64,000 nucleotides of DNA from an uncultured Planctomycetales bacterium (lineage in GTDB: Bacteria > Omnitrophota > Gorgyraeia > Zapsychrales > Zapsychraceae), in the NCBI GenBank assembly GCA_964630825.1, contig CAZVZR010000006.1:911-64910 (forward strand), read 5' to 3'. Both the position numbers and the translations under genes were made by a program. Shown here piece by piece: positions 8,091 to 32,759 of this stretch (within the stretch, counting starts at the first letter, position 1; each line of letters starts with the position of its first letter). The notes below the pieces were generated by a model. That model was not told the origin of the DNA and ran no database searches. It worked only from the letters and a program-made list of their open reading frames with translations.

Positions 8091-8114
8091 GATGTTTTGT
8101 TAACATGGCATCCG

Positions 8115-11954: not shown

Positions 11955-11995
11955 AACCCTCTGGGAAATAATAATTCCCAGAGGGTTTTTATTTT
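11955..11995 (+). terminator. rho-independent terminator
   Basis: 13-bp stem AACCCTCTGGGAA/TTCCCAGAGGGTT with loop ATAATAA, followed by TTTTTATTTT. Confidence 0.7.
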
Positions 11996-12048
11996 GGCGG
12001 ATTTATAAAAATTAATTTTGATCAGGTTTACTTTACAAGGGAGGGGGA

Positions 12049-14331: not shown

Positions 14332-16746
14332 ATGGCTTACATGTCTACGCCAAACCATAATGCGCCAGGCTGGCCAGGCCTTCCTCCGCGTTTGACATCA
14401 AGTGCGAAGACCGGTGTCGGCACGGCGCACAATCATCAAAGCCCATTGTGGTTTACTCTCAGCCATGGGACTTTAAATGAACTTTATTATCCCGGTATTG
14501 ATCAAGCCGCTACCCGCGATATGGAGTTTATCATCACCGATGGAAAGAATTTTTTTTCAGAAGAGAAAAGGCATGCCCAGAGCCGTACAGATTATTTGAT
14601 AGAAGGAGTCCCGGCTTATCGACTCGTTAACACTTGCCACCAGGGTTTCTATCAAATCGAAAAAGAAATTCTCACCGACCCCACCCGGCCTGTTTTATTG
14701 CAGCGATCCCGATTCAAATTATTGAAAACGATGGAAGGTAGTTATCATTTATATGTTTTATTGGCGGCTCATTTGAGCAATTTTGGCTCTGGAAACACTG
14801 CCTGGGTTGAAGATTACAAAGGTGTTCCCATGGTGTTTGCTAAAAAAGATGGGAATGCATTAGCCTTGGCCTGTTCTGTTCCCTGGCTTAAACGGTCAGT
14901 GGGATTTGTGGGGGCTTCCGACGGATGGCAGGATTTAACGGCTAACAAACAATTGACACAGGAGTATCTGCTTGCCGAAAATGGCAATGTGGCGCTTACC
15001 GCTGAGATTGATCTAAAGCAAAGCAAAGGAGAATTTATCATCGCCGTAGGGTTCGGTGATGATGCTGCCGAAGCGGCCAATCGAGCGCGTGCCTCATTGC
15101 AAGAAGGTTTTGATAGCGCGCAAAAAAATTATGTTGATCGATGGAAAATTTGGCAAAAATCTTTGCTTAGCTTGGATAAGAAACAAAAAGGCGAGTATGG
15201 AAATATTTATCGGGCCAGTACGATGGTCATGCGTTCTCATGAATCGATGAATTTTCCGGGTGGGATGATTGCCAGCCTTGCTGTGCCATGGGGTTTTAGC
15301 AAAGGGGATGAAGATTTGGGCGGTTATCATTTAGTGTGGCCGCGCGATTTAGTTGAAACAGCCGGTGGTCTTTTGGCAGCCGGAGGAAATGAGAATGCTC
15401 GTCGTGTACTTGGTTTTTTAGAAGCTACTCAAGAAAAAGATGGGCATTGGGGGCAGAACATGTGGTTAGATGGCACTCCTTATTGGAGCGGTATTCAGAT
15501 GGATGAAACTGCTTTGCCAATCCTTTTAGTAGATTTGGCATGGCGTGAAAAGGCGTTAACCAAGGAAGACAGGTTAAGATTTTGGCCCATGGTCCGGCAA
15601 GCGGCAATTTATTTGCTTCGTAACGGCCCGATAAGTCCCCAAGATCGCTGGGAGGAAGATGGGGGTTATACTCCCTTTACAATTGGTGCAGAGATCGCCG
15701 CACTACTAGCCGCAGCCGAGATGGCGGATTTAAATAATGAAGCATCCATGGCCACCTATCTACGAGAGGTTGCGGATAATTGGCACGCTGCTATCGACCG
15801 TTGGCTGTATGTTTCCGATACCGACTGGTGCCGCAAATACAATGTGAAAGGATACTACATCCGTCTCGCGACGATGAATGCCGGCGTAGAAGTACCTTCT
15901 CAAGAAAATGTGTTAATAAAAAATGTGACTTGTGATAAAGCCGTTCAATTGGCGGATCATTTGATCAGTCCTGATGCTTTAGCCTTGGTGCGTTTTGGTT
16001 TGCGTGCAGCGGATGATCCGCGAATCCTTGACACGGTCAAAGTTATAGATGCTTTATTAAAAACGGATATGCCTCAAGGAGCTATTTGGCACCGTTACAA
16101 CGGCGACGGTTATGGCGAACATGAGGACGGTTCGCCCTTTGACGGCACAGGGATCGGCCGGGCGTGGCCACTGCTCACCGGCGAGCGGGCGCATTATGAA
16201 GTTGCCGCCGGGCAGACAAGCCAAGCGAATAAACTTTTAACGGCATTAGAGAATTTTGCCAATGAAGGCGGTTTGATTCCGGAGCAAATCTGGGATGCGG
16301 CGGATATTCCCGAGCGTGAGCTTTATTTCGGCCGGCCTTCCGGATCAGCTATGCCTTTGGTTTGGGCGCATGCTGAGTATGTTAAACTGTTGCGGTCTCT
16401 GCGCGATGGAAAAGTTTTTGATATGCCGCCGCAAACCGTCCGTCGCTATTTAGTTGAAAAGAAAACCTCCCCGCATATATTGTGGAGATTTAATTATCAG
16501 CGCAAATCAATGCCTTGCGGTAAAATACTGCGCATTGAAACAATGGCACCGGCGGTTATTCATTGGAGCGTGGATAATTGGAAAACATCTTTGGATGTCA
16601 AGGCGAGTGATACGGGGCTGGACATTTACGTTGCTGATTTGTCGACGCAGATGATCTCTGAGGGATCAGAAATTAAATTTACTTTTTATTGGCCGCAAGC
16701 CGACCGTTGGGAAGGCGCAGATTTTTCTGTTCAGGTGGCTTCTTAA
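14332..16746 (+). CDS. glycoside hydrolase family 15 glucoamylase / glucodextranase-like enzyme (~800 aa bacterial type)
   Basis: N-terminal beta-sandwich region LWFTLSHGTLNELYYPGIDQAATRDMEFIITDG. Central (alpha/alpha)6 region with WEEDGGYTPFT and GAIWHRYNGDGYGEH. C-terminal beta-domain. A near-consensus TTGACA lies 23 nt before the ATG. Confidence 0.7.
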   Translation: MAYMSTPNHNAPGWPGLPPRLTSSAKTGVGTAHNHQSPLWFTLSHGTLNELYYPGIDQAATRDMEFIITDGKNFFSEEKRHAQSRTDYLIEGVPAYRLVNTCHQGFYQIEKEILTDPTRPVLLQRSRFKLLKTMEGSYHLYVLLAAHLSNFGSGNTAWVEDYKGVPMVFAKKDGNALALACSVPWLKRSVGFVGASDGWQDLTANKQLTQEYLLAENGNVALTAEIDLKQSKGEFIIAVGFGDDAAEAANRARASLQEGFDSAQKNYVDRWKIWQKSLLSLDKKQKGEYGNIYRASTMVMRSHESMNFPGGMIASLAVPWGFSKGDEDLGGYHLVWPRDLVETAGGLLAAGGNENARRVLGFLEATQEKDGHWGQNMWLDGTPYWSGIQMDETALPILLVDLAWREKALTKEDRLRFWPMVRQAAIYLLRNGPISPQDRWEEDGGYTPFTIGAEIAALLAAAEMADLNNEASMATYLREVADNWHAAIDRWLYVSDTDWCRKYNVKGYYIRLATMNAGVEVPSQENVLIKNVTCDKAVQLADHLISPDALALVRFGLRAADDPRILDTVKVIDALLKTDMPQGAIWHRYNGDGYGEHEDGSPFDGTGIGRAWPLLTGERAHYEVAAGQTSQANKLLTALENFANEGGLIPEQIWDAADIPERELYFGRPSGSAMPLVWAHAEYVKLLRSLRDGKVFDMPPQTVRRYLVEKKTSPHILWRFNYQRKSMPCGKILRIETMAPAVIHWSVDNWKTSLDVKASDTGLDIYVADLSTQMISEGSEIKFTFYWPQADRWEGADFSVQVAS

Positions 16747-18458: not shown

Positions 18459-18520
18459 GAACTGCTTAAACAAGTTTTCATTTTCTCATCCAGCGGCCAT
18501 CCCACAGTATTAACAAGTGA

Positions 18521-18558
18521 GCCCTTCTGATAAATGGCAGAAGGGCTTTCTTATTTCG
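18521..18558. terminator. bidirectional terminator between convergent genes
   Basis: 9-bp stem GCCCTTCTG/CAGAAGGGC with loop ATAAATGG, followed by TTTCTTATTT. Confidence 0.6.
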
Positions 18559-18883
18559 TTGAATTTGTCATTGCATTTAAAGGCGGCTTAGCCGAATTAG
18601 TGGCAGGTGTATTGCTGGAATCTTTTTCACCGGCCGTAGGCTCTACTCTATTTGTAGTATATTGTGTTTGAGTTTTCTCTTCCGGCATTACCCTATTAGC
18701 CGCAGGAGCCGATGTTGTATTCTGTAAGGCTCCCTCACGCGCATTCGTGGTATTAGGAGTATTTGTTCCATAGGTTGGTTCATTCCCGCCGCAACCACTG
18801 GCTAATAAAATAAGGAATAAAATCAATATCCCTTTTTGTCCGATCACAAAGTAACGACCATTCTTTTTGTTGATAGTAATCAT
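18551..18883 (-). CDS. lipoprotein, Thr/Asn/Pro-rich low complexity
   Basis: Internal ATG at 18883 is preceded by a strong SD (AAAGGAGAC). Lipobox LLASGC. The mature part is T/N/P-rich. The track start 18946 is probably too long. Confidence 0.5.
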   Translation of the reverse strand: MITINKKNGRYFVIGQKGILILFLILLASGCGGNEPTYGTNTPNTTNAREGALQNTTSAPAANRVMPEEKTQTQYTTNRVEPTAGEKDSSNTPATNSAKPPLNAMTNSTK

Positions 18884-19074
18884 AGCAGTCTCCTTTCCTG
18901 ATTTTATTGTATTTTTATTTGGTATATTTTTTACCAAAATAAACATTAAGAGAATGTTAAATTACCATTAATTTTCTTTTCCCGCATCTACCGCATTTTT
19001 TTAATTTTAAATTAATGTTAATTTAATATGCCGTTTGTTACTTTAAAACTCAAAAAGAGGCGATCAGAGAGGGT

Positions 19075-19785
19075 ATGTTTCTCATTGAACATATGAAAAA
19101 TACACATCCGATGTTGCTATGGTCAACGATTGGTTTTTTGATTGTGATTACTACCTATGTAGTTTTTGATAGGACACATTCCTTTTATAAACTTTCTTGG
19201 GTCGGTGTCCGTTTTTTTGATGAAGGTAAATATTCAAGAGCTTTACCTTATCTTTTGGGTGCTTATCGGATGAACCCCGAAGATAAAGTTATTACCTGGA
19301 AGCTTGTGTGGGCGTATCAAAAACTCGGCCGTGATAGCGAAGCACGCCGTATTCTGGAAGAAGTTAACGCCAGGTATCCGGCTGATCCAAAGTTAAGTGA
19401 GTCCTTAGGGGATGTGGCTTATTCCGCACAGGCTTATGATATTGCGCAGAGAAACTATCAACGCGTCCTGGCACGAAAACCGTCGGCAACGGTCCGTAAA
19501 AAATATATTAATGCACTCTTTGCGCAAAAGAAATATATTGATGCGATCAATCAGATGGATATTTTGCTTGCCCGAATGCCCGATGATCAGCAGCTGCGTT
19601 TCCAGCATGCACAGATTATTTCGGCGATTGGTGATCACGAACGGGCGGTTAGGGAACTGGAGTCTTTATTAGATAACGGGTTTGACAAAAAAGAAGTCGT
19701 CATCATGCTGGCGGATGAGTTGCGCCTTTTGGGACGCGATGAAGAAGCCATAAAAATTTATGAGGGGGTCAATCATGAAAAATAA
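19075..19785 (+). CDS. TPR-repeat protein with N-terminal TM anchor (module Y of the exopolysaccharide export TPR set)
   Basis: N-terminal TM. TPR-like helices. The C-terminal ~150 aa are paralogous to the C-terminus of 19760..20677. Confidence 0.65.
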   Translation: MFLIEHMKNTHPMLLWSTIGFLIVITTYVVFDRTHSFYKLSWVGVRFFDEGKYSRALPYLLGAYRMNPEDKVITWKLVWAYQKLGRDSEARRILEEVNARYPADPKLSESLGDVAYSAQAYDIAQRNYQRVLARKPSATVRKKYINALFAQKKYIDAINQMDILLARMPDDQQLRFQHAQIISAIGDHERAVRELESLLDNGFDKKEVVIMLADELRLLGRDEEAIKIYEGVNHEK

Positions 19786-20677
19786 AAAAGTTATAGTATC
19801 CAGCATTTTACTGTTTTTAGCCTATTTTACTTTTCCGGTTTATGGTGACGATGCGTTTTCACTTGAGGACCGGGCAAAAATGGGGGAGGTTTATAGTTTA
19901 GAACGATTGAAAAGATACGATGAAGTCAAGCCGATGATCGCCGATCTGTATAAGCGTTATCCTAATAACAAGGAAGTCAAGTGGACTTACGCGCGTATCT
20001 GGGGGTTTGGCGGGGATTGGAAAGCGGCGCAGACAATTTTCGATGAATTATGCGCCAAGGAATGTGATCCAGAAATGGTTTTAACTTATGGGCATATTTT
20101 GGAATCACAGGGTCCCAAGCCAGAAACATTGCTTTATATAAAGAAATTGGTTACTCAGCATCCGGATCAGAAGGAACTTCAGCCGATATATGCAGAAATA
20201 TTATCATGGAATACCCAAGACCCCAAAGGGCGTGATGCTATTGGAGACTTAAACGCTCAATTCCCGGATGACCCTCAAATAATAGAAGCTTTAGGCGATA
20301 TAGCTTATGCCTCTAAGGACTTTGCCCATGCACAGGAATATTATGAAAAAATTTCAGGAAAAGAAGCATCTCCCGGTATACGTAAAAAATATATTGATGC
20401 GCTGTTGGGAGAAAAAAAATACACCGAAGCAATCAGCCAGATGGATACCTTGCTTTCCGCTGCGCCCAATGACCAGGATTTACGTTATCAACATGCCCAG
20501 GTTATTGCTGCGACAGGAAAACATGAACAGGCTGTGAAAGAACTGAAGAGTTTAATGCAGGAAGGATTTAATAAAAAAGAGGCTATGGTGATGCTCGGCG
20601 ATGAGCTTCGCCAGTTGGGGCATGACGATGAGGCCTTAAAAATTTATAAGGAGGTAAATAATAATGAAAAAAAATAA
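19760..20677 (+). CDS. secreted TPR-repeat protein (modules X+Y)
   Basis: Signal peptide. The N-terminal half is ~60% identical to the N-terminus of 20664..22595 (DRAKMGEVYSLERLKRY…KWTYARIWGFGGDWK…). The C-terminal half is paralogous to 19075..19785. Confidence 0.7.
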   Translation: MRGSIMKNKKVIVSSILLFLAYFTFPVYGDDAFSLEDRAKMGEVYSLERLKRYDEVKPMIADLYKRYPNNKEVKWTYARIWGFGGDWKAAQTIFDELCAKECDPEMVLTYGHILESQGPKPETLLYIKKLVTQHPDQKELQPIYAEILSWNTQDPKGRDAIGDLNAQFPDDPQIIEALGDIAYASKDFAHAQEYYEKISGKEASPGIRKKYIDALLGEKKYTEAISQMDTLLSAAPNDQDLRYQHAQVIAATGKHEQAVKELKSLMQEGFNKKEAMVMLGDELRQLGHDDEALKIYKEVNNNEKK

Positions 20678-22595
20678 TTACTTATTTTTATTAGTTTTTG
20701 TTTTTTGTGTGGGGCTCGCCGGCAAGGTATATGGTGAGGAACCTCTTTCTATCGAGGACCGGGCAAAGATAGGAGAGATATACAGTTTGGAACAAATGAA
20801 GAGATATCAAGAAGCGAAACCTAAGATTGAAGACTTGCATCAGCGCTATCCAGATAATCGAGAAGTAAAATGGACGTATGTACGGATTTTGGGATTTGGC
20901 GGAGATTGGAAAGAAGCGATGGCGGTTTTCGATGAATTATGTTCCCCTAAATGTGACCCGGAGATGCTTATTACATATGGGCATATCTTGGAAGCGCAGG
21001 GCCCCAATCCGGAAACGTTGGAACAGATGAAAAGCCTTGTTGATCGGTTTCCGGACCAGTCAAAGCTCCAAGTCATCTATAATAAAATGCAATCTTGGAG
21101 TAATAATCCTCCACAAACTGAATCAGCAGAATCTCTCCCATCCGACAAAGACAACTTACCGGCGAAAAATATGGGAAAGACTGCTCACCAACATGTTTTT
21201 AAGGAAATAGTAGGAAAGTCGGACGAATTATTAAAAACTAACCCCGATGACGAAGCGGCGCTGTTGCATAAAGCGCAGGCTCTGAGTTGGCAAGGAGATT
21301 TGCGCTCCTCGATAAAGCTGTATAAAAAATTAATAAAAGACCATCCTGACGAAGTTTTATACTACCGTGAAGGCGCACGTGTCATGGGCTGGGCAGGGAA
21401 GTTTTTTGAAGCTTCTAGTTTATACGATCGAGCTTGTCAGCGCTTTCCTGACGATTTAGCGCTCAAAGCGGAAGCATCGGCCAAGAAGGCTTATTACAAT
21501 GATTTATTTTTTCTGGCGGAAACAGAATATAGTAATTGGCTGGCCATTGAGCCGGGCAATCCGGAAGCCTTATTTGATTTAGGTCAGATCCATGCCCGTG
21601 CTAAACGCTATGCGGCCGCGCAAAAAGATTATGAAGATCTTCTTACTGCCATTCCGGATAATAACCAAGCGCAGATGGTTCGTGACAAAGCTGATATTTA
21701 CGCGCACGGATGGCTGACGGAGACAGGATATCAACGCCGTGAAATCGACAGTCAATCTCGACAGGCGGATGTGCGGTTAAACGATATTTCCACACAAATA
21801 AGGAAATCGTTTCTAGGGAACATGTTGATTGGTGTCAAGTTTGATGAAATGGAATATGCTTTTATGGATCCTTTTCCCAATGTCCATCGCCAGCGCTATT
21901 TAGCTTCTGTGGAAAAAAATTTTTCACCCGATACTTTTTGGAAAGCCGGCTATGGGTTGAGCCAATCTACGGAGGATATAAAAGATTTACAGTACCGTGA
22001 CGCAGAAGTGCAGTTCCCATTTTTTACGGAACGGTTTTTATGGGATGTTTCCTATAAACGGGATGATATGATCCAAAATGCTTCAACAATGCTCAACCAT
22101 CTGCAGGATGATGAATACCGCCTACGCACGACAATAAAGCCGGTTAAGTTTCTTGAAATCGGCAGTGACGGAACCCAGGCTCATTTGACCGATGGCAATG
22201 ATTTTGAATCTTGGGGCGGTGATGCAGCGGTGCATTTGTCCTATGATCCTAAACGGTTGACCTTAAAATATCGTTGGCAAGATTTGCGTTATGATGAATC
22301 TAACCCAGCATATTTTTCTCCGGGTAATTTTATTTCTAAAAGAGTATCCGTCGAATGGCAGCAATCTTTAAATAAAAGAAATGCTTATTGGGGTGCAGAT
22401 CAATTTTGGTACCTCTTAAGGTATGAGTTAATTATGGACCCGGGGGATGTCCGCGGCCATATGGGCACAGTAGGAATTAATTGGGATATTAACAAAAGAT
22501 TGACGCTGCGCGCCGAGGGGCAGCGTATTTTTTATGAAAATTCTAATATTTACGATGATACGTTAGGGACAACCTCTCTTCTGTTTAATTTCTAA
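20664..22595 (+). CDS. TPR domain fused to a C-terminal outer-membrane beta-barrel (BcsC/PgaA-like polysaccharide export porin)
   Basis: Signal peptide. An N-terminal ~330-aa TPR region. The C-terminal ~250 aa alternate hydrophobic and polar residues and end in …SLLFNF (terminal Phe, the OMP C-terminal signature). Confidence 0.6.
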   Translation: MKKNNYLFLLVFVFCVGLAGKVYGEEPLSIEDRAKIGEIYSLEQMKRYQEAKPKIEDLHQRYPDNREVKWTYVRILGFGGDWKEAMAVFDELCSPKCDPEMLITYGHILEAQGPNPETLEQMKSLVDRFPDQSKLQVIYNKMQSWSNNPPQTESAESLPSDKDNLPAKNMGKTAHQHVFKEIVGKSDELLKTNPDDEAALLHKAQALSWQGDLRSSIKLYKKLIKDHPDEVLYYREGARVMGWAGKFFEASSLYDRACQRFPDDLALKAEASAKKAYYNDLFFLAETEYSNWLAIEPGNPEALFDLGQIHARAKRYAAAQKDYEDLLTAIPDNNQAQMVRDKADIYAHGWLTETGYQRREIDSQSRQADVRLNDISTQIRKSFLGNMLIGVKFDEMEYAFMDPFPNVHRQRYLASVEKNFSPDTFWKAGYGLSQSTEDIKDLQYRDAEVQFPFFTERFLWDVSYKRDDMIQNASTMLNHLQDDEYRLRTTIKPVKFLEIGSDGTQAHLTDGNDFESWGGDAAVHLSYDPKRLTLKYRWQDLRYDESNPAYFSPGNFISKRVSVEWQQSLNKRNAYWGADQFWYLLRYELIMDPGDVRGHMGTVGINWDINKRLTLRAEGQRIFYENSNIYDDTLGTTSLLFNF

Positions 22596-22610
22596 AAAAA
22601 AGAGGAGGCA

Positions 22611-24167
22611 ATGATGGATAATCGTGGATCACAGCAATGGGTCAATAATTATTCTTGTCCGGCAACGGTCTTGGTCTTTGTTTTGTTAATTTTTCTTGTT
22701 AATTATGTATTTTTTCGTTTTATTTTTTTGTATTTTGCATCATGCACGCCAGCGGAGAAGCTTTTGGCTTCTGGCTTTTGGGCCGCAGAGTTATTTATCA
22801 TGCTCCATGCGGTTGGGTATTATTTCAATGTTTTGCGTTTAAACCGCAACCCGGATATCACCTATCCGAAAATGCCGGGGGAAGAGCCATCGGTTGCGAT
22901 CTTGATCCCTGCCCGCCATGAGCCCCGCGAAGTGGTTGAGCAGACGCTCTTGGCTTGTTACAACTTGGATTATGAGAATAAAACGATACACCTTTTGGAT
23001 GATTCATCCATCGAATCCTATAAAAGGGAAGCGCGAGAACTGGCTGCAGAATACGGCGCTTCGGTATTTTCGAGAGATGTTCATCGTGGGGCCAAGGCCG
23101 GAATTATCAACGAATGCAGCCAAGCCTTAACGGAGAAATATATCGCTATCTTAGATGCTGACCAGAATCCAATGCCGCACTTTCTTAAAGTCCTTGTCCC
23201 GTTTCTAGAACAAGAAGAAAAACTTTCTTTTGTGCAGAGTCCACAATTTTATACCAATGGCAACGTTAACAGTGTTTCTTTAACGTCGAATTATCAGCAG
23301 GGAATTTTTTATGAATACATTTGTGAAGGAAAGAGCCGCAATGGAGCGATGATGTGTTGCGGCACTAATGTTGTGCTGCGCCGAGAAGCATTGATGGAGG
23401 TGGGCGGGTTTGATGAGAGAACCGTGACGGAGGATTTCGCCACTTCCTTGTGGCTGCATATCCATGGGTGGAAATCTTTGTACGTCAATAAGCCTTTGGT
23501 TTTTGGCATGGCTCCCGAAGACTTAATAGCATATTTTAAGCAGCAATCCCGCTGGTCGATGGGCAATACGCAAGTGTTTAAACATGTTATTAAATTATTT
23601 TTGACTCAACCATGGAGTCTCACTTTAAGGCAATGGTTTGAATATTTTATTACAGGGACGTATTATTTTATCGCCTGGGCATATTTATTTTTATTTGTTT
23701 TTCAGCTCATTTACACATTCTTCAATGTTCCCACGTTTTTTATGGATCCTTATGTTTACTCGACAACTTTTGTCCCATATTTCTTGCTGGCACTGGCGGT
23801 TTTTTATTCAAGTATGGGCCTGCGTAATTATGCGTTTTCCAATGTCCTTAAAACACACCTTTTGACAATATTATCCATTCCTATATATATCAGGTCGACA
23901 TTGTTTGGGCTTTTCAATATTCACGCCGGATTTCAGGTGACGCCTAAAACAGGCTCCGTACAGGTGCCGTACTTGTTTTTATGGGCACAGTTATTTTTGT
24001 GGGCGCTTAATTTGGTAGCTATGACGTGGGGTCTTTTAAGATGGGTTTATGAAAGAAATTTAGGAATCCTTTTCAATGTTTTTTGGTTGTTCTATCATGC
24101 GTTGATCTTTTCATCGATATTTTATTTTAATGAACAGGATAACCAGGAATTGGGAGAGGCATTATGA
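22611..24167 (+). CDS. processive family-2 glycosyltransferase (cellulose-synthase/PgaC-like beta-glycan synthase) with no PilZ domain
   Basis: Two N-terminal and several C-terminal TM helices. Catalytic motifs LDDSS (D,D), DADQNP (DxD), VTEDFATSLWLH (TED) and QQSRWSMG (QxxRW). There is no C-terminal PilZ. Confidence 0.85.
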   Translation: MMDNRGSQQWVNNYSCPATVLVFVLLIFLVNYVFFRFIFLYFASCTPAEKLLASGFWAAELFIMLHAVGYYFNVLRLNRNPDITYPKMPGEEPSVAILIPARHEPREVVEQTLLACYNLDYENKTIHLLDDSSIESYKREARELAAEYGASVFSRDVHRGAKAGIINECSQALTEKYIAILDADQNPMPHFLKVLVPFLEQEEKLSFVQSPQFYTNGNVNSVSLTSNYQQGIFYEYICEGKSRNGAMMCCGTNVVLRREALMEVGGFDERTVTEDFATSLWLHIHGWKSLYVNKPLVFGMAPEDLIAYFKQQSRWSMGNTQVFKHVIKLFLTQPWSLTLRQWFEYFITGTYYFIAWAYLFLFVFQLIYTFFNVPTFFMDPYVYSTTFVPYFLLALAVFYSSMGLRNYAFSNVLKTHLLTILSIPIYIRSTLFGLFNIHAGFQVTPKTGSVQVPYLFLWAQLFLWALNLVAMTWGLLRWVYERNLGILFNVFWLFYHALIFSSIFYFNEQDNQELGEAL

Positions 24168-25315
24168 AAAGAATATTTCTTATGTTGCTCATCGGATTTA
24201 GCGGATTTTTCTTGGTTGCCTGGCTTTTATCGCTGCGGGAAAATGACGATGTCCATCAAACCTCCCAAAAGCTGGAAGAGTCCTGGGCTGGTTTTAAGGC
24301 GTATTTTATACGTTCAGACGGGGCGGTGGTCCGTCCTCATGAACAAGATATTACCTCGGAAGGACAAGCCAACGCTATGCTCAGGGCTGTTGTCATGGGA
24401 GACCACGACACGTTTGAACGTGTCTTCCAATGGACTCAAAATAATCTTTCGCGAAAGAAAACTGCAGGAGATAATTTATTATCATGGCATTATAAAGACA
24501 ACATTGTCCAGGACACAATGCCTGCGACAGATGCAGACATTGACTATGCTTTAGCGCTTTTGCTAGCATCGGAAAAATGGAAGAATGACGCTTACAAAGA
24601 AGTAGCGCAGCAGTCCTTAAAAGATATTTTGGACCGGCTCACGGTCGTTTTTAAGTACCGTCGGTATCTTTTGCCTTGGTTTGTGGAGTCGCCGGCAAAT
24701 CAGGAAAAGATTCCCCAGAACCTTTCTTATTATTCCCCGGCTTATTTTAAATTATTTAACACATTCGATCATGACCCGCGCTGGTTGGAGTTGGTAGACA
24801 CCACCTATATCCTTTTGTTGCAAGCTCAAAATAATTTTGAGGGAACAACAGGATGCGGGTTGGTACCGGATTGGTGTGTCGTTGACCGTAAAGGGTCGCT
24901 TCATCGTTATGAAGCGAGGTCTTCTGATTTTTCCTGGGAGGCGGTCCGGGTACCATTTCGTATAGGTATTGATGCATTTCTCTATAATGATCCACGCGCA
25001 ATAGAAGTTTTATCGGGTTTCGCCAATTTTGCCACAGCGGAATTAGACAAAAACAAAAAGCTTGTTAGCGGATATAGTTATGAATGTAAACCATTGCCCA
25101 ATACTGAGGAAAGCCCATTGATCTATGCTGCTTTTTATATGGCGCTGGAACTGACGGACAACCGGTACGCTTCAGAAAATATTAATAAACTGCGCCAATG
25201 GTTTCACCGAAGTTTGAAAGGAGGTTATTATAAGGACACTCAGGAATATTATCTCAACAGCCTCGTCTGGGTGGCCGAACTTTTACGCCGGGAGAAAATT
25301 CATGACCAAAAATGA
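24164..25315 (+). CDS. glycoside hydrolase family 8 (BcsZ-like endo-beta-glycanase), periplasmic
   Basis: Signal/TM anchor. GH8 catalytic TSEGQANAM. GH8 signature ATDADIDYALALLLASEKW. Overlaps the upstream stop (ATGA). Confidence 0.8.
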   Translation: MKRIFLMLLIGFSGFFLVAWLLSLRENDDVHQTSQKLEESWAGFKAYFIRSDGAVVRPHEQDITSEGQANAMLRAVVMGDHDTFERVFQWTQNNLSRKKTAGDNLLSWHYKDNIVQDTMPATDADIDYALALLLASEKWKNDAYKEVAQQSLKDILDRLTVVFKYRRYLLPWFVESPANQEKIPQNLSYYSPAYFKLFNTFDHDPRWLELVDTTYILLLQAQNNFEGTTGCGLVPDWCVVDRKGSLHRYEARSSDFSWEAVRVPFRIGIDAFLYNDPRAIEVLSGFANFATAELDKNKKLVSGYSYECKPLPNTEESPLIYAAFYMALELTDNRYASENINKLRQWFHRSLKGGYYKDTQEYYLNSLVWVAELLRREKIHDQK

Positions 25316-25535
25316 ATTGCTTGCTCTTTTAGAGGAGATCCGCAAGATCGAGGAAGGAGTGGCTCTTTATTCAAAACATATTAAAAATACGCTTTATCTC
25401 TCGGGGTTTAAGAAAGACAAGGTCAATCAAGTAAAGAAAACACTCGATATTTTTTATAAAGAAAGCAAGGATCAAGGAGTTGTTATTAAACAGTTGATTG
25501 ATCAGATAAAGAAAGGAAAACAAGATGTTTACTGA
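25302..25535 (+). CDS. small cytoplasmic helical protein (unknown), translationally coupled to the GH8 gene
   Basis: 77 aa with no signal peptide. Overlaps the GH8 stop by 14 nt. Confidence 0.35.
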   Translation: MTKNELLALLEEIRKIEEGVALYSKHIKNTLYLSGFKKDKVNQVKKTLDIFYKESKDQGVVIKQLIDQIKKGKQDVY

Positions 25536-25818
25536 AGAAACTTATCGCGAATACCTTTTAGAAATTTATCGTAAAAAAGAAAAGAAATTAAATTTGCTTT
25601 CTTCTCTTCTAAAACAGATCTGGGATGACCGTATATATAAGGCTATTTCTGGGCAAGTGCAGGAGGAAATACGCCATATCAATTTGATGGAAAAATTGCT
25701 CACGTCATTATCACCAGAATCTATCCTGGAAGAAGAAGAAAGCATTCAATTAAATTTAAAGGAGAATCTGTCAGATTATAAGCCAGTCGCTGAACTTGCT
25801 CCCAAGAGGCAATTTTGA
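25525..25818 (+). CDS. small cytoplasmic protein (unknown), last gene of the synthase operon
   Basis: 97 aa, helical, acidic C-terminus. Overlaps the preceding ORF by 11 nt. Confidence 0.35.
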   Translation: MFTEETYREYLLEIYRKKEKKLNLLSSLLKQIWDDRIYKAISGQVQEEIRHINLMEKLLTSLSPESILEEEESIQLNLKENLSDYKPVAELAPKRQF

Positions 25819-25962
25819 TTCTAGCAATTTAACATTCTTCAATTATTTTGAAGAAACCAAGGGGGGTGTTGACGCATTCCGCGCTTGCATTTTGAAGTTT
25901 TTAGGCTAAAATAGCGTCGCTGTAAAAGTTTAGAAAATTACTCATTGGAAGGCGCGCGGATT

Positions 25963-27582
25963 ATGATTTCTGTTAACAATGTTTCTTTGCAATATGGCCA
26001 ACGTAAACTTTTTGCCGGGGTAAATATTGTTTTTACACCGGGCAATTGCTATGGGCTCATTGGGGCCAACGGCTCCGGCAAATCCACATTTCTAAAGATT
26101 CTTTCCGGTGAAGTCGAAACCACCACCGGCGAAGTTGCCATTCTCCCCGGGAAACGCCTTTCAGTATTAAGGCAAGATCAGTTTGCCTTTGATGAATATA
26201 CGGTTTTAACCACGGTTATCATGGGGCATAAACGGCTTTACAGTATTATGATGGAGAAAGAAGCGCTTTATGCCAAGGTAGATTTTTCCGACGCTGATGG
26301 AATGCTTATTGCTGATCTTGATCATGAGTTCAATGAACTCAACGGTTGGAATGCCGAATCCGATGCAGCTAAGCTCTTAAGTTATTTAGGCATTGAGGAA
26401 GAGTTATGTGCACTGCCGATGAAGCAGCTTGAGGCCGGACAAAAAGTGCGCGTGCTTTTAGCTCAGGCCTTGTTTGGGAATCCTGACATTTTACTTTTGG
26501 ACGAACCCACCAACCATCTGGACGTCGAAACTTGTCTATGGTTGGAAGAGTTTTTGTGTGAATTCCAAAATACCGCAATAGTGGTTTCCCATGACCGGCA
26601 TTTTTTAGACAAGGTTTGTACGCACATCGCGGATATTGATTTTGGCAAAATTCAACTGTATTCCGGTAATTATACTTTTTGGCAGGAATCCAGCCAATTG
26701 GCATTGCGCCAGCAAAGTGAATCGAATAAAAAAATTGAGGAAAGAAGAAAAGAGTTGCAGGATTTTATCGCGCGCTTTAGCGCTAATGCTTCCAAATCAC
26801 GGCAGGCGACCAGCCGCAAAAAGACTTTAGAGAAACTTACATTGGAAGAAATCCGCCCTTCATCGAGGAAGTATCCGTTCGTCGGTTTTGAGCAGGAGCG
26901 CGAGGCCGGCAACGAGCTTTTGAATATCACGGGCTTGTCCAAATCGAAAGATGGGCAGGACATGTTTAAGAATCTTAACATCACTATTGAAAAAGGGGAT
27001 AAGGTTGCGTTTGTGGGCGCCAATGATTTGGTTAAGACTACGCTTTTTCAGGTGTTGATGGGAGAGCTCACGGCTGATAGCGGGAGTTTTAAGTGGGGAT
27101 TTTCAACCCGCCGGGCGTATTTACCGAAGGACAACGTTAAATATTTTGATAATGAACTAAATATTATCGATTGGCTTCGTCAGTTCTCGCAGAACACGGA
27201 TGAAAATTTTGTGCGCGGATTTTTAGGCCGCATGCTTTTTTCCGGCGAAGAAGCGTTTAAGCCAGTGAAAGTTTTATCCGGAGGGGAAAAGGTAAGATGC
27301 ATGCTGTCGCGGATGATGCTCATGCAGGCGAATGTGCTAATTTTAGATGAGCCGACGAACCATTTGGATTTGGAATCCATCACGGCATTAAACCGCGGCC
27401 TGGAAAAATTTCGTGGGACTATTCTCTTAGCATCTCATGACCATCAGTTGGTTCAAACAACGGCTAACCGGATCATTAAGATTACGCCTCAAGGCTGCAT
27501 CGACCGCGTCGGCACAACATTTGATGAATACCTCGCGGATGAGAAAAATAAAAGCGGGCATGACAATTTTATTAATAAGTGA
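25963..27582 (+). CDS. ybiT: ABC-F family ATPase YbiT-type (two fused ABC domains, no TM)
   Basis: Near-collinear with E. coli YbiT (MISVNNVSLQYGQRKLF…GANGSGKSTFLKIL…; LSGGEK signatures; second domain GANDLVKTTLF). The ATG at 25963 is preferred over the TTG at 25945. Confidence 0.9.
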   Translation: MISVNNVSLQYGQRKLFAGVNIVFTPGNCYGLIGANGSGKSTFLKILSGEVETTTGEVAILPGKRLSVLRQDQFAFDEYTVLTTVIMGHKRLYSIMMEKEALYAKVDFSDADGMLIADLDHEFNELNGWNAESDAAKLLSYLGIEEELCALPMKQLEAGQKVRVLLAQALFGNPDILLLDEPTNHLDVETCLWLEEFLCEFQNTAIVVSHDRHFLDKVCTHIADIDFGKIQLYSGNYTFWQESSQLALRQQSESNKKIEERRKELQDFIARFSANASKSRQATSRKKTLEKLTLEEIRPSSRKYPFVGFEQEREAGNELLNITGLSKSKDGQDMFKNLNITIEKGDKVAFVGANDLVKTTLFQVLMGELTADSGSFKWGFSTRRAYLPKDNVKYFDNELNIIDWLRQFSQNTDENFVRGFLGRMLFSGEEAFKPVKVLSGGEKVRCMLSRMMLMQANVLILDEPTNHLDLESITALNRGLEKFRGTILLASHDHQLVQTTANRIIKITPQGCIDRVGTTFDEYLADEKNKSGHDNFINK

Positions 27583-28341: not shown

Positions 28342-29313
28342 ATGCCTATAACCTCCCATTCCCCCGCAGAAATTACCCTTCAATTGAAACGCGCGTTTAG
28401 TTATCGAGAGTCCTTGGGATTAAATACTAACGCGATGCGTTTGGTCAACAGCAAAGGTGACGGCCTTGAAGGGCTTATCATTGACCGCTTCAACAAGCAT
28501 TTTGTCGTTTATGTTTTAGATACACGTTGGCATCCGCATCAAAAGACGATCAACGATGTTTTGTGCGAACATTTTGAAGTTGCCTATCTGGTATTCAAGG
28601 ATCGTACCGTATCCGACACCCGCAGTGCATCCCATATTGCAGTTGACGTTCTGGTTGGCCAGGAAAATTCCCAAACAATCGTCGAGGAAAACGGTTTGCT
28701 TTTTCACGTGGATCTCAACGACAATCTTAATCAGGGATTGTTTTTGGACATGCGTAAGAACCGGAAGATTGTGGCTTCTTATGTTGCGGGCCGGGCGGTT
28801 TTAAACTGTTTTGCTTACACTTGTTCTTTTGGGGCATATTGCCGGAAATTCGGCGCTGCCCGGGTGACCAACGTGGATATCAGTAAAAAATTTTTGCAAG
28901 TAGGAAAAAAGAATTACCGCTTAAATCGTCTGCATGAGGGCCGCAGCGAATTTGTCCAAGATCACGCTGTTCGTTATCTGGAACGGGTGGCCAAGCGCAA
29001 CAACCTTTTTGATCTTATCATTCTCGACCCGCCATCGTTTTCGCGGTTTGAGGGGACTGTTTTTAGTGTCAAGAAAGACATGCCATTATTGATTGAAAAG
29101 GCGTTGCGCGCGTTGACCCCTGAAGGCATGCTTTTCGTTTCAACGAATTTAAGTTCAATCCTCCATCCGCAGCTGGAAACGTGGGCGCATTCTGCGGCCA
29201 AGAAAACCGGACGCAAGATCAGGGAAGTAATGCGCCTGGGCCAGGATGTCGAATTCCGCAAGAACGGTTTGATGAAAGAAAGTTTCTTGTCTGCTTTGCT
29301 GGTGAAATTATGA
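28342..29313 (+). CDS. class I SAM-dependent rRNA methyltransferase, RlmI/YccW-like but lacking the N-terminal PUA domain
   Basis: GLEGLIIDRFNKHFVVYVL aligns with RlmI (GLPGITIDRF). Also LNCFAYTCSFG and ILDPPSFS (DPPxF). The track start 28309 lies inside the upstream terminator, so the first ATG at 28342 is used. Confidence 0.75.
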   Translation: MPITSHSPAEITLQLKRAFSYRESLGLNTNAMRLVNSKGDGLEGLIIDRFNKHFVVYVLDTRWHPHQKTINDVLCEHFEVAYLVFKDRTVSDTRSASHIAVDVLVGQENSQTIVEENGLLFHVDLNDNLNQGLFLDMRKNRKIVASYVAGRAVLNCFAYTCSFGAYCRKFGAARVTNVDISKKFLQVGKKNYRLNRLHEGRSEFVQDHAVRYLERVAKRNNLFDLIILDPPSFSRFEGTVFSVKKDMPLLIEKALRALTPEGMLFVSTNLSSILHPQLETWAHSAAKKTGRKIREVMRLGQDVEFRKNGLMKESFLSALLVKL

Positions 29314-30854
29314 GTGTAAAGAAAGCATTTATAGGTGAGAATTTTTTAATGGTTTTTCTTTTATTCGTCTTAAGTTTTCTTTTGCGTTTCTTTCTTATCA
29401 GCAAGGGACCTTATGATGCAGACTGCCTTTCCTTGGCATTGTTAGTGCAAAAAGTTGAACAAACTCATCAGCTTCAGTATTTTTTCGGTTCGGGTTATCC
29501 TTTGACGGTATTTTGGGGGGCTGTCTTTGTCCATTTTTTGAAGTGGTTTGGGATGGCTGATCCTGTTTATGCGGTTAATCTGATGAGTGTTGTCTTTTCG
29601 TCTTTGGCTGTAGCTGTCTTTTATAGTATTGGCTTGAGGTTTTTAGGGCCGTTGGGCGCGATTTTATCCTCTGTTTTGTTTTCGGTTAACCCGCTTTTCT
29701 TAGGTGTTTCCGTCTATGGCTCGAGTCAGCCTCTAGCCATATTTTTTTTATTAAGCAGTATTCTTTTTTTATTAAAATTCCTTGAGCGAGAAGACCGCCT
29801 GTTTCTTTTTTTAAGTGGGATATTTTTAGGGTTAACCGGTGCCAGCCGTCTTCAGGAGATGTTCCTTATACTTGGGCCGTTGGTTTTTCTGTTTTTGGCC
29901 AATAAAAATATAAAACCCGCGCAGAGTAGCCACATTTTAAAATTCTTCCTTATAGCCTTTCTCACCGCAGGAGTTTTTTATCTTCCATTTCTCTTAGGAG
30001 CGCAAAAATTTGATTATCTAAAGCAATTGGCTTTTTACCGCCAACTTTCTGTGGCTAAAGAATTTCAGATAGATGCCTTTAAAGCGGTAGGGGAATTTCT
30101 TTTTGCGGCCTTATTGCCGGTGGGGATAGCTTTGTCTTTATGCGGTATGTGGTATTTGTTTAAAGAGAAAAGGCCTCTTTTTATATTTTTTATTTTATGG
30201 GTTATTTTGCCGTGGGCCCTTTATTCTTTTCTTTATACAATCACGGCACGGTTCATTGTCTTTATGTTGCCGGTATGTTTTTGGGCTCAGGGGTTTGTAT
30301 TTGTTAAGTTTTTCAATTTCAATAAATGGTCACGCACGATATCACTTGTAATATTCGTAACAATGTTTTTTATTATGTTTAATACGATCTATCCTCTTTT
30401 GTCATTGCGCCATGAACGTGCTTTTACTCCCGAATATGCCGAATGGGTAAAAGAAAAGATACCTGTTGGGAGTGCCATTATAGTAACCGACGACCGGTTA
30501 TTTTTTGAATATTATGGCCAGAACAAAATCCTTGGCCGGCCTTTAAAATATTTTGATTATGAAGAGGGTGACCTTTTAGATTTTCAAAAGAAATTAGATA
30601 GATTGTTAGATTCCAATATTTCGGTTTATATAACGTATGTGGGGCTTTTTGATTATGACCCTAAGGAAAGGTTTTCACAATTTATGAAGGCCCACTATAT
30701 TTTAAAAGAAGTGGGGGTAAATCTCTACGAGGATTGGCATCAGGGGGCGATGGTCAAACGTATTTTCTACAATCCCTTGGTTAAAATTGAAAAACGTTCT
30801 AGAGAGGATGAATGGCAAAGATTGTTAAAGAAATTTTTGAATGTGTACAAATAA
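29310..30854 (+). CDS. polytopic membrane protein, GT-C-fold glycosyltransferase-like (ArnT/PMT_2-like)
   Basis: At least 10 TM helices with a first-loop DAD motif (GPYDADCL), then a ~150-aa C-terminal soluble domain. The ATG at 29310 overlaps the RlmI-like stop; the track's upstream extension overlaps the previous gene. Confidence 0.45.
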   Translation: MSVKKAFIGENFLMVFLLFVLSFLLRFFLISKGPYDADCLSLALLVQKVEQTHQLQYFFGSGYPLTVFWGAVFVHFLKWFGMADPVYAVNLMSVVFSSLAVAVFYSIGLRFLGPLGAILSSVLFSVNPLFLGVSVYGSSQPLAIFFLLSSILFLLKFLEREDRLFLFLSGIFLGLTGASRLQEMFLILGPLVFLFLANKNIKPAQSSHILKFFLIAFLTAGVFYLPFLLGAQKFDYLKQLAFYRQLSVAKEFQIDAFKAVGEFLFAALLPVGIALSLCGMWYLFKEKRPLFIFFILWVILPWALYSFLYTITARFIVFMLPVCFWAQGFVFVKFFNFNKWSRTISLVIFVTMFFIMFNTIYPLLSLRHERAFTPEYAEWVKEKIPVGSAIIVTDDRLFFEYYGQNKILGRPLKYFDYEEGDLLDFQKKLDRLLDSNISVYITYVGLFDYDPKERFSQFMKAHYILKEVGVNLYEDWHQGAMVKRIFYNPLVKIEKRSREDEWQRLLKKFLNVYK

Positions 30855-30857
30855 TTT

Positions 30858-32759
30858 ATGGCACTGATTAGCTTACAGGAAATTTCGCTTGCCTTCGGCG
30901 GGCCGTTAATTTTTGACCAATTAAGTTTGCAATTGGAAGAAGGCGAACGCGTGGCGCTTTTGGGGCGTAACGGCGAAGGCAAGACTACGCTCATGAAGGT
31001 GATTGCCGGTCATCTGGGCGTCGATGAGGGCAAAATTATCCGCCAGCAAGGCATTGAAATTACCCATCTGCCGCAGGAAGTTCCTTCGGATATACAGGGA
31101 AATCTTTTTGATATTGTCGCCTCCGGGTTAGGCAAGCGAGGAGAACTTCTTAAAGAATACCATCATGTTAGCCATCGCTTGCAGACTGAGCACACACCGG
31201 AACTGATGCGCCAGCTGGACCGCGTGCAGGCGGAATTAGACCGCACGAAAAGTTGGGATACGAATAGTCAAGTTGAGTATGTCCTTTCGCAGATGAAACT
31301 GGATCCAGAAGCGGATTTTGCCGCATTATCCGGCGGGCAGAAACGACGGGTGCTTTTAGCGCGGGCGCTGGTGATTCATCCGGACATTCTTCTTCTGGAT
31401 GAGCCCACTAATCACTTGGATATTGATTCGATTGATTGGTTGGAAGGTTTTTTAAAAAGTTATTCCGGCACACTTTTATTTGTCACGCACGACCGTGTGT
31501 TTATGCGGCATTTGGCAACACGGATTGTCGAGATTGATCGCGGCAAGATTTTTAGTTGGCGCTGTGACTATGAAACATTTTTACAGCGTAAACAAATGGC
31601 CTTAGATAATGAAGAAGTGCAACGGCACGAATTTAAAAAAAGGTTGGCGGAAGAAGAGGTTTGGATCCGCCAGGGGGTTAAGGCCCGCCGGGTCAGAAAC
31701 GAAGGGCGCGTCAAGGCACTGGAACGGATGCGGGAAGCGAAAAAAGCGCAGCGCGAGGTTACGGGAAAAGTGAATATGCGGTTGCAGGAAGCGGATATTT
31801 CCGGGCATTTGGTGATTAAGGCTGCCAATTTGGGTTATTGGTACGGCGATAAATGTTTAATTAAAAATTTCTCCGTCAACATCATGCGTGGGGATAAAAT
31901 CGGTGTGATTGGGCCCAACGGTTCCGGGAAGACAACCCTTTTGCGTTTGCTGTTTGGGAAAATGGCTCCGCTGCAGGGCAAGTCGAGGCTGGGGACAAAT
32001 CTTGAAGTAGCATATTATGACCAATTACGTGAACAGCTGGATGAAGAAAAGACCGTTATTGAAAATATCTGCGGTACGAGCGATACGATTACTATTAACG
32101 GCAAGCCACGGCATATCTATGGGTATATGCAGGATTTTCTTTTTACTCCGGACCGCGCGCGCACGCCAGTCAAGGTTCTCTCCGGCGGGGAACGTAACCG
32201 TCTTTTATTAGCCAGATTATTTATTAAGCCGTCTAATGTTTTAGTCATGGATGAGCCGACGAATGATTTGGATATCGAAACACTGGAGCTTTTGGAAGAA
32301 TTGCTTCTTGATTATTCGGGTACGCTCATTTTAGTCAGCCATGACCGCGCGTTTTTAAATAATATTGTTACCAGCACGATTGTACTCGAGGGCGAAGGCG
32401 TGGTTAACGAATATGCCGGCGGCTACGATGATTGGTTGAGCCAACATCAGGCACAGCAAGGATTGAAGAAAGAAATTTCCCGGGAAAATGCGGGTGAAGA
32501 AACGGGGGAAAAAGGAAAACCGAAGCCGCGCAAACTTTCTTTTAAGGAAGAAAAGGAGCTTGCCGCCCTTTGCGTAAAAATTGAAAAGCTTGAGGAGCAG
32601 CGGGAAGAACTTTATACGCTTATGGCCGACCCGGCACTCTTTAAAAAAGATCCGCAGGAAATTGTTCAAGCAAGAAGCAAGCTGGAAGAGATTGAAGATG
32701 AATTGCTGAAGAATTTTGAGCGCTGGGAATTCCTGGAAGATTTACGCCGGAAGGATTGA
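30858..32759 (+). CDS. uup: ABC-F family ATPase Uup-type with C-terminal coiled-coil domain
   Basis: 633 aa. Two ABC cassettes (GRNGEGKTTL, GPNGSGKTTL; LSGGQKRR, LSGGERNR). C-terminal K/E-rich coiled coil as in E. coli Uup. Confidence 0.85.
   Translation: MALISLQEISLAFGGPLIFDQLSLQLEEGERVALLGRNGEGKTTLMKVIAGHLGVDEGKIIRQQGIEITHLPQEVPSDIQGNLFDIVASGLGKRGELLKEYHHVSHRLQTEHTPELMRQLDRVQAELDRTKSWDTNSQVEYVLSQMKLDPEADFAALSGGQKRRVLLARALVIHPDILLLDEPTNHLDIDSIDWLEGFLKSYSGTLLFVTHDRVFMRHLATRIVEIDRGKIFSWRCDYETFLQRKQMALDNEEVQRHEFKKRLAEEEVWIRQGVKARRVRNEGRVKALERMREAKKAQREVTGKVNMRLQEADISGHLVIKAANLGYWYGDKCLIKNFSVNIMRGDKIGVIGPNGSGKTTLLRLLFGKMAPLQGKSRLGTNLEVAYYDQLREQLDEEKTVIENICGTSDTITINGKPRHIYGYMQDFLFTPDRARTPVKVLSGGERNRLLLARLFIKPSNVLVMDEPTNDLDIETLELLEELLLDYSGTLILVSHDRAFLNNIVTSTIVLEGEGVVNEYAGGYDDWLSQHQAQQGLKKEISRENAGEETGEKGKPKPRKLSFKEEKELAALCVKIEKLEEQREELYTLMADPALFKKDPQEIVQARSKLEEIEDELLKNFERWEFLEDLRRKD

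Follow-up and report, generated by a model that had tools for sequence, protein, structure and literature searches.

A candidate exopolysaccharide synthase operon of Omnitrophota without BcsB and with a pair of ferritin-like hairpin proteins

A stretch of 64,000 nucleotides from an uncultured bacterium assigned to the Omnitrophota (contig CAZVZR010000006.1, positions 911 to 64,910; the whole stretch is called the window hereafter) carries an operon of seven genes. It probably encodes a synthase-dependent exopolysaccharide secretion system that operates without BcsB and in which two small proteins build a helical bundle regulating the synthase in trans. The genes lie at positions 19075-25818, all on the + strand, and neighbours overlap or sit at most 16 nt apart in the open reading frame (ORF) calls. 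They code, in this order, for three TPR proteins (ORF1, ORF2 and ORF3), a GT2 synthase, a GH8 glycanase and the small proteins A and B (Table 1). The first-pass annotation of this DNA, made from the letters alone, gave ORF positions and descriptions that coincide exactly with those found here; its count of eight genes is corrected to seven, which is also the number that it listed. The way in which the system works resembles that of Bcs, Pga, alginate and Pel, which are synthase-dependent as well. BcsB is generally considered indispensable for the bacterial cellulose synthase, and the PilZ domain its universal switch. The BcsB-independent synthase system with a split ferritin-like module is widespread and apparently undescribed: the literature searched contains no description of this gene set and no report of a polysaccharide synthase with a ferritin-like partner.

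The synthase is predicted to be a processive, channel-forming GT2 enzyme built on the BcsA core, an identity that follows from its profile alignment, its fold match and its invariant gating motif. It matches Glyco_tranf_2_3 of Pfam at 1.5e-28, and its best NCBIfam model is that of CelA (TIGR03030, 235 bits against a cut-off of 699). The scores are 170 bits with BcsA PRK11498 (cut-off 992) and 92.7 bits with PgaC TIGR03937 (cut-off 422), the latter too low for a PgaC-type identity. The catalytic motifs are DDSS (residues 130-133), DAD (182-184), TED (273-275) and QQSRW (311-315), and the gating loop FxVTxK reads F441-Q-V-T444-P-K446. Among 64 homologues neither the catalytic nor the gating motifs vary, and the F, T and K of the gating loop are present without exception. 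In a search of the PDB, a profile of 14 homologues aligns the synthase to residues 201-684 of Escherichia coli BcsA and 97-565 of Rhodobacter sphaeroides BcsA. The region of BcsA that is covered comprises the last two amino-terminal transmembrane (TM) helices, the glycosyltransferase domain, the interface helices and the carboxyl-terminal TM bundle; the alignment ends before the PilZ domain, and the amino-terminal region of BcsA has no counterpart. The synthase itself terminates about 12 residues past its last TM helix and has no PF07238 (PilZ) match. It is predicted to comprise 2 plus about 5-6 TM helices, a GT-A domain, interface helices and the gating loop. The AlphaFold2 model computed from the 64 homologues has a pLDDT of 90 and a pTM of 0.89, and Foldseek aligns it to BcsA with a TM-score of 0.84 (25% identity), to plant CesA with 0.71 and to hyaluronan synthase (HAS) with 0.60. 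These motifs and alignments agree with the initial description of a processive GT2 synthase of 518 residues that carries all catalytic motifs and no carboxyl-terminal PilZ domain. Since BcsA is the best fold match, a grouping with non-processive GT2 enzymes, which had been named as a finding that would speak against this description, does not occur.

Neither BcsB nor a cyclic di-GMP (c-di-GMP) receptor is found with this synthase in the window. The Pfam scan covered the 47 window ORFs of at least 150 aa, among which no BcsB (PF03170), PilZ, GGDEF or EAL domain is found; a polysaccharide deacetylase domain as in PgaB is likewise missing from the operon and from these window ORFs. A hidden Markov model (HMM) of PilZ from related loci has no match among the window ORFs of at least 40 aa. 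Queries with BcsB, BcsE, BcsF, BcsG and BcsR of E. coli K-12 return 0 matches among the 9042 ORFs of the window and 84 related loci, where the positive controls BcsA and BcsZ match 83 and 45 ORFs, respectively. When all ORFs that surround the synthase in 83 related loci (Omnitrophota, Chlorobiaceae, Planctomycetota and others) are clustered, no conserved family has the size of BcsB, and BcsB itself is absent from these loci up to about 10 kb from the synthase. The absence of BcsB from the window, as well as that of BcsB and PilZ from the locus itself, had been put forward in the first-pass annotation and stands after the Pfam, PilZ-HMM and E. coli BcsB searches.

Synthases of about 500 aa of the window type are common in metagenomes and occur in at least 505 species-representative genomes. 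They are encoded mainly by Omnitrophota, Chlorobiaceae and, within Planctomycetota, Phycisphaerae and Sedimentisphaerales, but also by Elusimicrobia, Auribacterota and a metagenome-assembled genome of deltaproteobacterial affiliation. The nearest relatives of the window synthase, with 75-77% identity, are from Omnitrophota. In the neighbourhood analysis of the 83 loci, the only conserved partners of the synthase are the TPR/porin protein, a GH8 or GH26 glycoside hydrolase, A and B. The gene order can differ, as in Chlorobium luteolum DSM 273, whose operon, at about 1117266-1122058 of CP000096, reads A-B-porin-synthase-GH8. The same seven-gene layout as in the window is found on a chromosome-scale contig of Omnitrophota whose synthase is 76% identical. 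The recurrence of the complete layout in that genome, and of its core in the 83 loci, shows that the gene set has not come together by chance.

Within the operon, the GH8 gene and gene A overlap by 14 nt, and genes A and B by 11 nt, which is a usual sign of translational coupling. The description of the two small products (77 and 97 aa) as cytoplasmic proteins whose genes each overlap the preceding one is accurate. The counts in a scan of promoters and terminators are not above those of shuffled controls. Upstream of the operon there is a strong terminator-like hairpin at 18519-18548 (11 pairs, then a T-run), about 530 nt 5' of the first gene and just past a divergent ORF of 131 aa (18551-18946, - strand). 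The product of this ORF, encoded just 5' of the operon, has a LASGC motif that resembles a lipobox, as well as a tail of low complexity with many T, N and P residues.

The export components are modular. ORF1 matches TPR_19 (5e-18) and TPR_14 (4e-14) of Pfam and has a single amino-terminal hydrophobic anchor in its hydropathy profile (residues 12-32) with no obvious cleavage site; it is probably a periplasmic scaffold anchored in the inner membrane. ORF2 (TPR_14, 1e-18) starts with a signal-peptide-like sequence (VYG|DD). Its carboxyl-terminal half is similar to ORF1 (BLASTP 8e-56, 49% identity) and its amino-terminal half to the amino terminus of ORF3 (BLASTP 1e-61), which identifies it, by similarity, as a putative secreted chimera of the amino-terminal module of ORF3 and the carboxyl-terminal module of ORF1. 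ORF2 is confined to the closest clade of the window (loci L003, L005 and L006), while a short TPR protein of about 195-240 aa preceding the TPR-barrel protein is widespread in related loci. ORF3 is composed of a signal-peptide-like amino terminus (VYG|EE), TPR repeats and a carboxyl-terminal barrel of about 300 aa whose last residue is F. A terminal aromatic beta-signal is present in the listed homologues of ORF3, with F in nearly all of them, and a homologue of ORF3 is encoded directly 5' of the synthase in 77 loci. The best solved relative of the barrel (profile of the last 330 aa, 24 homologues) is PgaA 4y25, at a weak E-value of 0.0017 (20.8 bits). ORF3 scores 37 bits with TIGR03939 (cut-off 367), and the BcsC model of NCBIfam scores 16.7-27.6 bits (cut-off 858). 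The split modular exporter that had been recognized at the outset is thus confirmed by the Pfam TPR matches in all three proteins; its designation as BcsC/PgaA-like is fair as a description of architecture, but the sole solved sequence relative is PgaA and not BcsC, and the scores stay below the equivalog cut-offs.

The glycanase matches Glyco_hydro_8 (PF01270) at 1.9e-39 (136 bits) and the BcsZ model of NCBIfam with 114.9 bits (cut-off 299). Its nearest solved relatives are endoglucanases, namely CelA 1cem (9e-21), CMCax 1wzz and BcsZ 3qxf, and the glutamate of the SEG motif aligns between them and the window protein. The GH8 assignment made initially is thereby supported. A hydrophobic segment at the amino terminus may be a signal or an anchor, and the protein is probably a periplasmic enzyme that trims or releases the polymer.

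The polymer is most likely a beta-glucan, as judged from the relatives of the synthase and of the glycanase; pure cellulose is not established. The GH8 slot is occupied by GH26 (PF02156, 52 bits) in 26 related loci, i.e., a third of them, and by GH8 in 51. GH8 and GH26 share licheninase activity in CAZy, rather than a specificity for cellulose only. In addition, the acceptor-site motif is (M/F)CCGTN in the synthase family and FFCGS in BcsA. This motif, the GH26 substitution and the failure to reach the equivalog cut-offs of CelA and BcsZ are compatible with more than one linkage. The same three observations and the common licheninase activity give a substantial chance, though one short of even, to a polymer other than cellulose (a mixed-linkage beta-glucan, a beta-mannan or a modified glycan) made by a system of the architecture described here. 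Against it, the nearest relatives of the synthase in sequence and fold are all cellulose synthases, and the nearest solved GH8 proteins are endoglucanases.

Two groups of genes upstream of the operon code for proteins that may act on carbohydrates. A GH15 glucodextranase-like protein of 804 aa (14332-16746, + strand; Glucodextran_N 323 bits, GH15 118 bits) is encoded 2.3 kb 5' of the operon, with an SDR gene and a gene resembling that of glyoxalase in between. About 9 kb 5' of the synthase operon, an MBOAT acyltransferase gene (8097-9527, + strand) is followed by one for a 377-aa protein without Pfam match (9538-10671, + strand). This pair resembles polysaccharide O-acylation pairs of the AlgI/AlgJ or DltB/DltD type and could have the same polymer as its target.

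The small proteins A and B, which had been regarded as unknowns, are both classifiable as hairpins resembling one half of a ferritin or rubrerythrin. Neither has a Pfam or NCBIfam family match on its own. A match of B to Gtr1_RagA (22 bits, at threshold) is discounted as an artefact of coiled helices, the family profile pointing to ferritin-like proteins instead. Both lack a hydrophobic segment in hydropathy profiles and are thus cytoplasmic, soluble proteins. The AlphaFold2 model of A is a two-helix hairpin (helices 3-33 and 38-71, pLDDT 96.6). The profiles of A and B align to each other over 68 columns (hhalign, probability 87%, E 4e-6), with E17/E18 of A over E18 of B and S55xxH58 of A over E48xxH51 of B. 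When A and B from 24 pairs are joined into artificial concatenations of the separate proteins, 20 of the 24 match the Pfam family Rubrerythrin PF02915 (best 3e-9) and 14 match Ferritin_2. The profiles of B or A+B match the hairpins of the de novo designed di-iron protein 'Due Ferri' (DF1; 1mft at 8e-7, and 2hz8), as well as symerythrin, bacterioferritin, TM1526 and the encapsulated ferritins EncB/EncC. A Foldseek search with the hairpin of A alone was dropped as non-specific: no match has an E-value of 0.001 or below, and the encapsulated ferritin 5n5e ranks 11th. On these profile matches, A and B are assigned as paralogous half-ferritin/rubrerythrin-type hairpins with putative E...ExxH motifs. 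Paired, they would make up a four-helix bundle in which E/(S)xxH/E/ExxH is a nearly canonical set of putative ligands. The family consensus of these is E17, H26 and S55xxH58 in A and E18 and E48xxH51 in B.

The pair is tightly linked to the synthase. Word-indexed homologue searches yielded 4 matches and 1 match for A and B, and were superseded by local iterative HMMs and an exhaustive HMMER search. The HMMs detect A and B as overlapping neighbours in about 70 of 85 loci, with A first in every case, so that the conservation of the small ORFs in related genomes, proposed earlier as a check, is verified. In the neighbourhood clustering A is found in 68 and B in 61 of the 83 loci, fusions of B coming in addition. 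The A-B order is kept even when the pair is moved 5' of the porin gene, as in C. luteolum. Searched against 1.84 billion representative proteins, the profile of A retrieves 117 family representatives, nearly all of 77-80 aa; apart from three false positives among repeat proteins, all matches are stand-alone proteins. All four distant representatives of A that were sampled have an overlapping ORF (63-68 aa) on their 3' side; the one tested, which has 63 aa and lies beside P0230, is a homologue of B. In both contigs with readable upstream DNA, the carboxyl terminus of a synthase is encoded directly 5' of the distant A.

In a number of lineages B carries an additional domain. It runs into a PilZ domain in 11 loci (PF07238, 32-34 bits, cut-off 22.5), e.g., at 12606-13097 of L061, with canonical RxxxR and NxSxxG motifs, and in one locus (L069) it forms the cytoplasmic amino terminus of a TM-HAMP-GGEEF diguanylate cyclase. 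In L022 (Planctomycetia), A is followed both by a short B (11992-12195) and by a B-PilZ protein (12198-12674), which suggests that alternative B partners can compete for one A hairpin. The first-pass annotation proposed that the small proteins replace PilZ. It is right in that the window pair has no such domain; the B proteins of many relatives do carry PilZ, and one carries GGDEF. These fusions indicate that the A/B module works with c-di-GMP signalling, not as a substitute for it. Window B consists of the hairpin (residues 1 to about 62) and an acidic tail of about 35 aa (EEEESIQ...) at the position where relatives have PilZ. The clade of the window would thus have kept the bundle and lost the c-di-GMP receptor, and a regulatory or adaptor role is the most economical explanation.

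A second set of data comes from synthase variants of about 610 aa (n = 14), which have a carboxyl-terminal extension of about 100 aa. All have in their locus a divergent, ligand-less A/B pair, which is encoded directly 3' of the long synthase in 12 of the 14, at synthase +1.8 kb (L017, L030, L040, L042, L047, L052, L053, L057, L059, L067, L075 and L080). A CheY-like receiver is usually encoded after it, and histidine kinases often are as well. In the other two loci (L072 and L079) the ligand-less type is upstream, and one of the kinases is a PAS-HisKA-HATPase-PilZ protein. Many long-synthase loci have in addition a canonical A/B pair 3' of the hydrolase gene. The extension was tested as a hidden PilZ domain: it has no Pfam or PilZ-HMM match, reaches a probability of 14% in hhalign and lacks the RxxxR and DxSxxG motifs. 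The co-variation of the extension with the A/B type argues for a physical or functional coupling of A/B with the cytoplasmic end of the synthase.

The following mode of action can be proposed. The synthase would polymerise a UDP-sugar, most likely UDP-glucose, to a beta-glucan chain that would cross the inner membrane without BcsB. Anchored ORF1, ORF2 and the TPR part of ORF3 would guide the chain through the periplasm, the barrel of ORF3 would export it, and the GH8 enzyme would trim or release it. A and B would form a rubrerythrin-like four-helix bundle at the cytoplasmic face that docks on the synthase and controls it, assuming the part that PilZ plays in cis in BcsA. Sister lineages may use this bundle to recruit either a c-di-GMP receptor of the PilZ type or a diguanylate cyclase; their full E/ExxH-type ligand set suggests a di-metal (iron) sensor of redox state or O2. 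The window bundle, minus PilZ and two ligands, would probably be a plain regulatory or adaptor subunit. The more specific idea that A/B is a natural heterodimeric 'due ferri' di-iron module, acting as the O2-, redox- or iron-sensing subunit of a BcsB-independent synthase and recruiting PilZ or a cyclase in some lineages, is a tentative one and rather doubtful at present.

Several observations weigh against a regulatory bundle of this kind in a BcsB-free glucan synthase. The contacts between A and B, and those of the pair with the synthase, are ones that we infer. The concatenated A+B of the window has no Rubrerythrin or ferritin match at E <= 1, and its place in the ferritin-like family is due to its homology to that family, not to a Pfam match of its own. 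Window A has E17, E18, Y23, H26, S55 and Q58 (consensus H58), and window B has K18, E19, E48 and H51 (consensus E18 in helix 1). Two of the six putative metal ligands are therefore substituted, while E17, H26, E48 and H51 are kept; the changes H58Q in A and E18K in B make metal binding by the window pair doubtful. A subclade of Chlorobiaceae (L020, L033, L041 and L046), the only pair-less group among the loci with enough flanking DNA, has synthase, porin and GH8 and no A/B within 10 kb, which implies that A/B is not essential for synthesis. Seven other Chlorobiaceae loci (L036, L038, L043, L045, L048, L050 and L051) encode B fused to a NotI-like nuclease-fold domain (PF12183, 180-192 bits), e.g., at 12981-14372 of L048, the two being joined by some 130 aa of low complexity with a high content of P, S and Q, and the fusion still being encoded after A in the operon; the model does not explain these fusions. 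A BcsB gene could also lie outside the DNA covered, which is 64 kb here and about 10 kb on each side in relatives. Finally, the presence of GH26 in place of GH8 argues against assuming plain cellulose.

An alternative role for A/B, that of a stand-alone oxidative-stress protein resembling rubrerythrin or ferroxidase that is co-transcribed with the operon, protects the cell and makes no contact with the synthase, is unlikely. It could account for the canonical ligand set and for the similarity to Rubrerythrin and EncFtn, and the hosts are all anaerobes or microaerophiles, in which rubrerythrins are common. However, the A family is essentially limited to the synthase context (4/4 sampled distant members and 68/83 loci), B is fused to PilZ, GGDEF and other partners of signalling type, and the ligand-less pairs retained beside long synthases fit a binding module and not an enzyme. 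An ordinary Bcs system, with BcsB and any c-di-GMP receptor encoded elsewhere and the small ORFs as unrelated passengers, is very unlikely. In its favour, the synthase is closest to BcsA, GH8 is the family of BcsZ and only 64 kb of the genome are visible; against it, BcsB is missing up to about 10 kb from the synthase in all 83 loci from several phyla, including ones from complete or near-complete chromosomes, the synthase is devoid of the BcsA amino-terminal region and of PilZ and scores far below the CelA cut-off, and A/B is syntenic with it across phyla and fused to PilZ or GGDEF in relatives.

The proposed regulatory A/B bundle and its synthase can be compared with several known systems. 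The first-pass annotation placed the locus outside both the Bcs and the Pga paradigm, and this is borne out, features that define membership being missing in both cases. With Bcs (BcsA-BcsB-BcsZ-BcsC, types I-III) it shares the BcsA fold, the D/D/TED/QxxRW and FxVTxK motifs, and the presence of GH8 and of a TPR outer-membrane exporter in the operon. It differs by the absence of BcsB, of the synthase PilZ domain and BcsA amino-terminal region, and of BcsD, E, F, G, Q and R. Its exporter is split over three proteins and has a PgaA-like barrel, two half-ferritin hairpins are added, and its proteins are below the NCBIfam equivalog cut-offs for CelA, BcsZ and BcsC. With PgaABCD, which makes poly-N-acetylglucosamine (PNAG), it has in common a compact synthase (about 500 aa, two amino-terminal TM helices), the absence of BcsB, small accessory proteins encoded adjacently and a TPR protein with a putative 16-strand-type porin, PgaA being the only solved sequence relative of the barrel. 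Unlike in Pga, the synthase is nearer to BcsA than to PgaC (235 vs 93 bits), GH8 is present, there is no PgaB deacetylase, and the accessory proteins are soluble ferritin-like hairpins and not a membrane protein such as PgaD.

Precedent for a BcsA-type synthase without BcsB is found in cyanobacteria, whose cellulose systems combine the synthase with an HlyD-like protein and a TolC-like exporter (Maeda et al. 2018, via PMC8892547). They use export of the tripartite-efflux type and keep PilZ, whereas the window operon uses TPR proteins and a porin and has no PilZ. BcsB-less cellulose systems are otherwise known only in this cyanobacterial HlyD/TolC form (PMC8892547).

Regarding the small proteins, half-ferritins and related proteins (EncFtn/EncB/EncC, symerythrin, rubrerythrin, DF1) are likewise built from helix-loop-helix units with E...ExxH, two of which make up one four-helix di-metal site. 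A and B differ from them in being the products of two separate, diverged genes, which would give a heterodimer, and in having one ExxH changed to SxxH. They also differ in being encoded in a polysaccharide-synthase operon, with PilZ and GGDEF fusions in relatives and no encapsulin or iron-storage context. The delivery of regulatory input to a synthase by a separate protein has parallels in the in-trans receptors Alg44 PilZ, BcsE and PgaCD. Bacterial hemerythrins are non-heme di-iron four-helix bundles that sense O2 or redox state and are known to control diguanylate cyclases, thus acting in c-di-GMP signalling (PMC9388753). In contrast to these receptors and sensors, A/B has a ferritin-like fold split in two genes, and its window version is without a nucleotide-binding domain.

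Table 1. Genes of the operon and their products (positions in the window).
Gene	Position	Strand	Product
ORF1	19075..19785	+	236 aa; TPR protein
ORF2	19760..20677	+	305 aa; TPR protein
ORF3	20664..22595	+	643 aa; TPR + outer-membrane beta-barrel; C-terminus ...LLFNF
Synthase	22611..24167	+	518 aa; GT2
GH8 glycanase	24164..25315	+	383 aa
Small protein A	25302..25535	+	77 aa
Small protein B	25525..25818	+	97 aa

Other genes of the window deserve mention. Within 7 kb 3' of the operon there are two ABC-F-type ATPase genes (25945-27582 and 30858-32759, + strand), whose products have tandem ABC_tran domains and an ABC_tran_Xtn linker; a PMT_2 glycosyltransferase-like membrane protein is encoded between them (29181-30854). 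Further downstream, an ORF of 1500 aa (48994-53496, + strand) combines an RND pump (ACR_tran, residues 3-1021, 987 bits) with a carboxyl-terminal OEP domain (residues 1314-1494) and is preceded by a gene for an HlyD-type adaptor (47881-48987). The presence of an inner-membrane pump and a TolC-like exporter in a single polypeptide is unusual. Directly 3' of a gene for a MacB-type ABC transporter lies an ORF of 690 aa (60170-62242, + strand) that matches no Pfam family at E <= 0.01.

The synthases without BcsB or a PilZ domain of their own form a large natural family (at least 505 species representatives), which includes the cultured C. luteolum DSM 273. Their minimal BcsA core gives a handle on what BcsB contributes. 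The split ferritin-like bundle would be a new type of partner for a polysaccharide synthase, tying the matrix to c-di-GMP and possibly to iron or oxygen, and its family offers natural heterodimeric counterparts of designed di-iron hairpins. For Omnitrophota and green sulfur bacteria, the operon provides a testable pathway of matrix production. If the di-iron reading of A/B is true, the synthase-dependent exopolysaccharide systems would gain a new class that serves to build a protective matrix and is used mainly by anaerobes such as Omnitrophota, Chlorobiaceae, Phycisphaerae/Sedimentisphaerales and Elusimicrobia.

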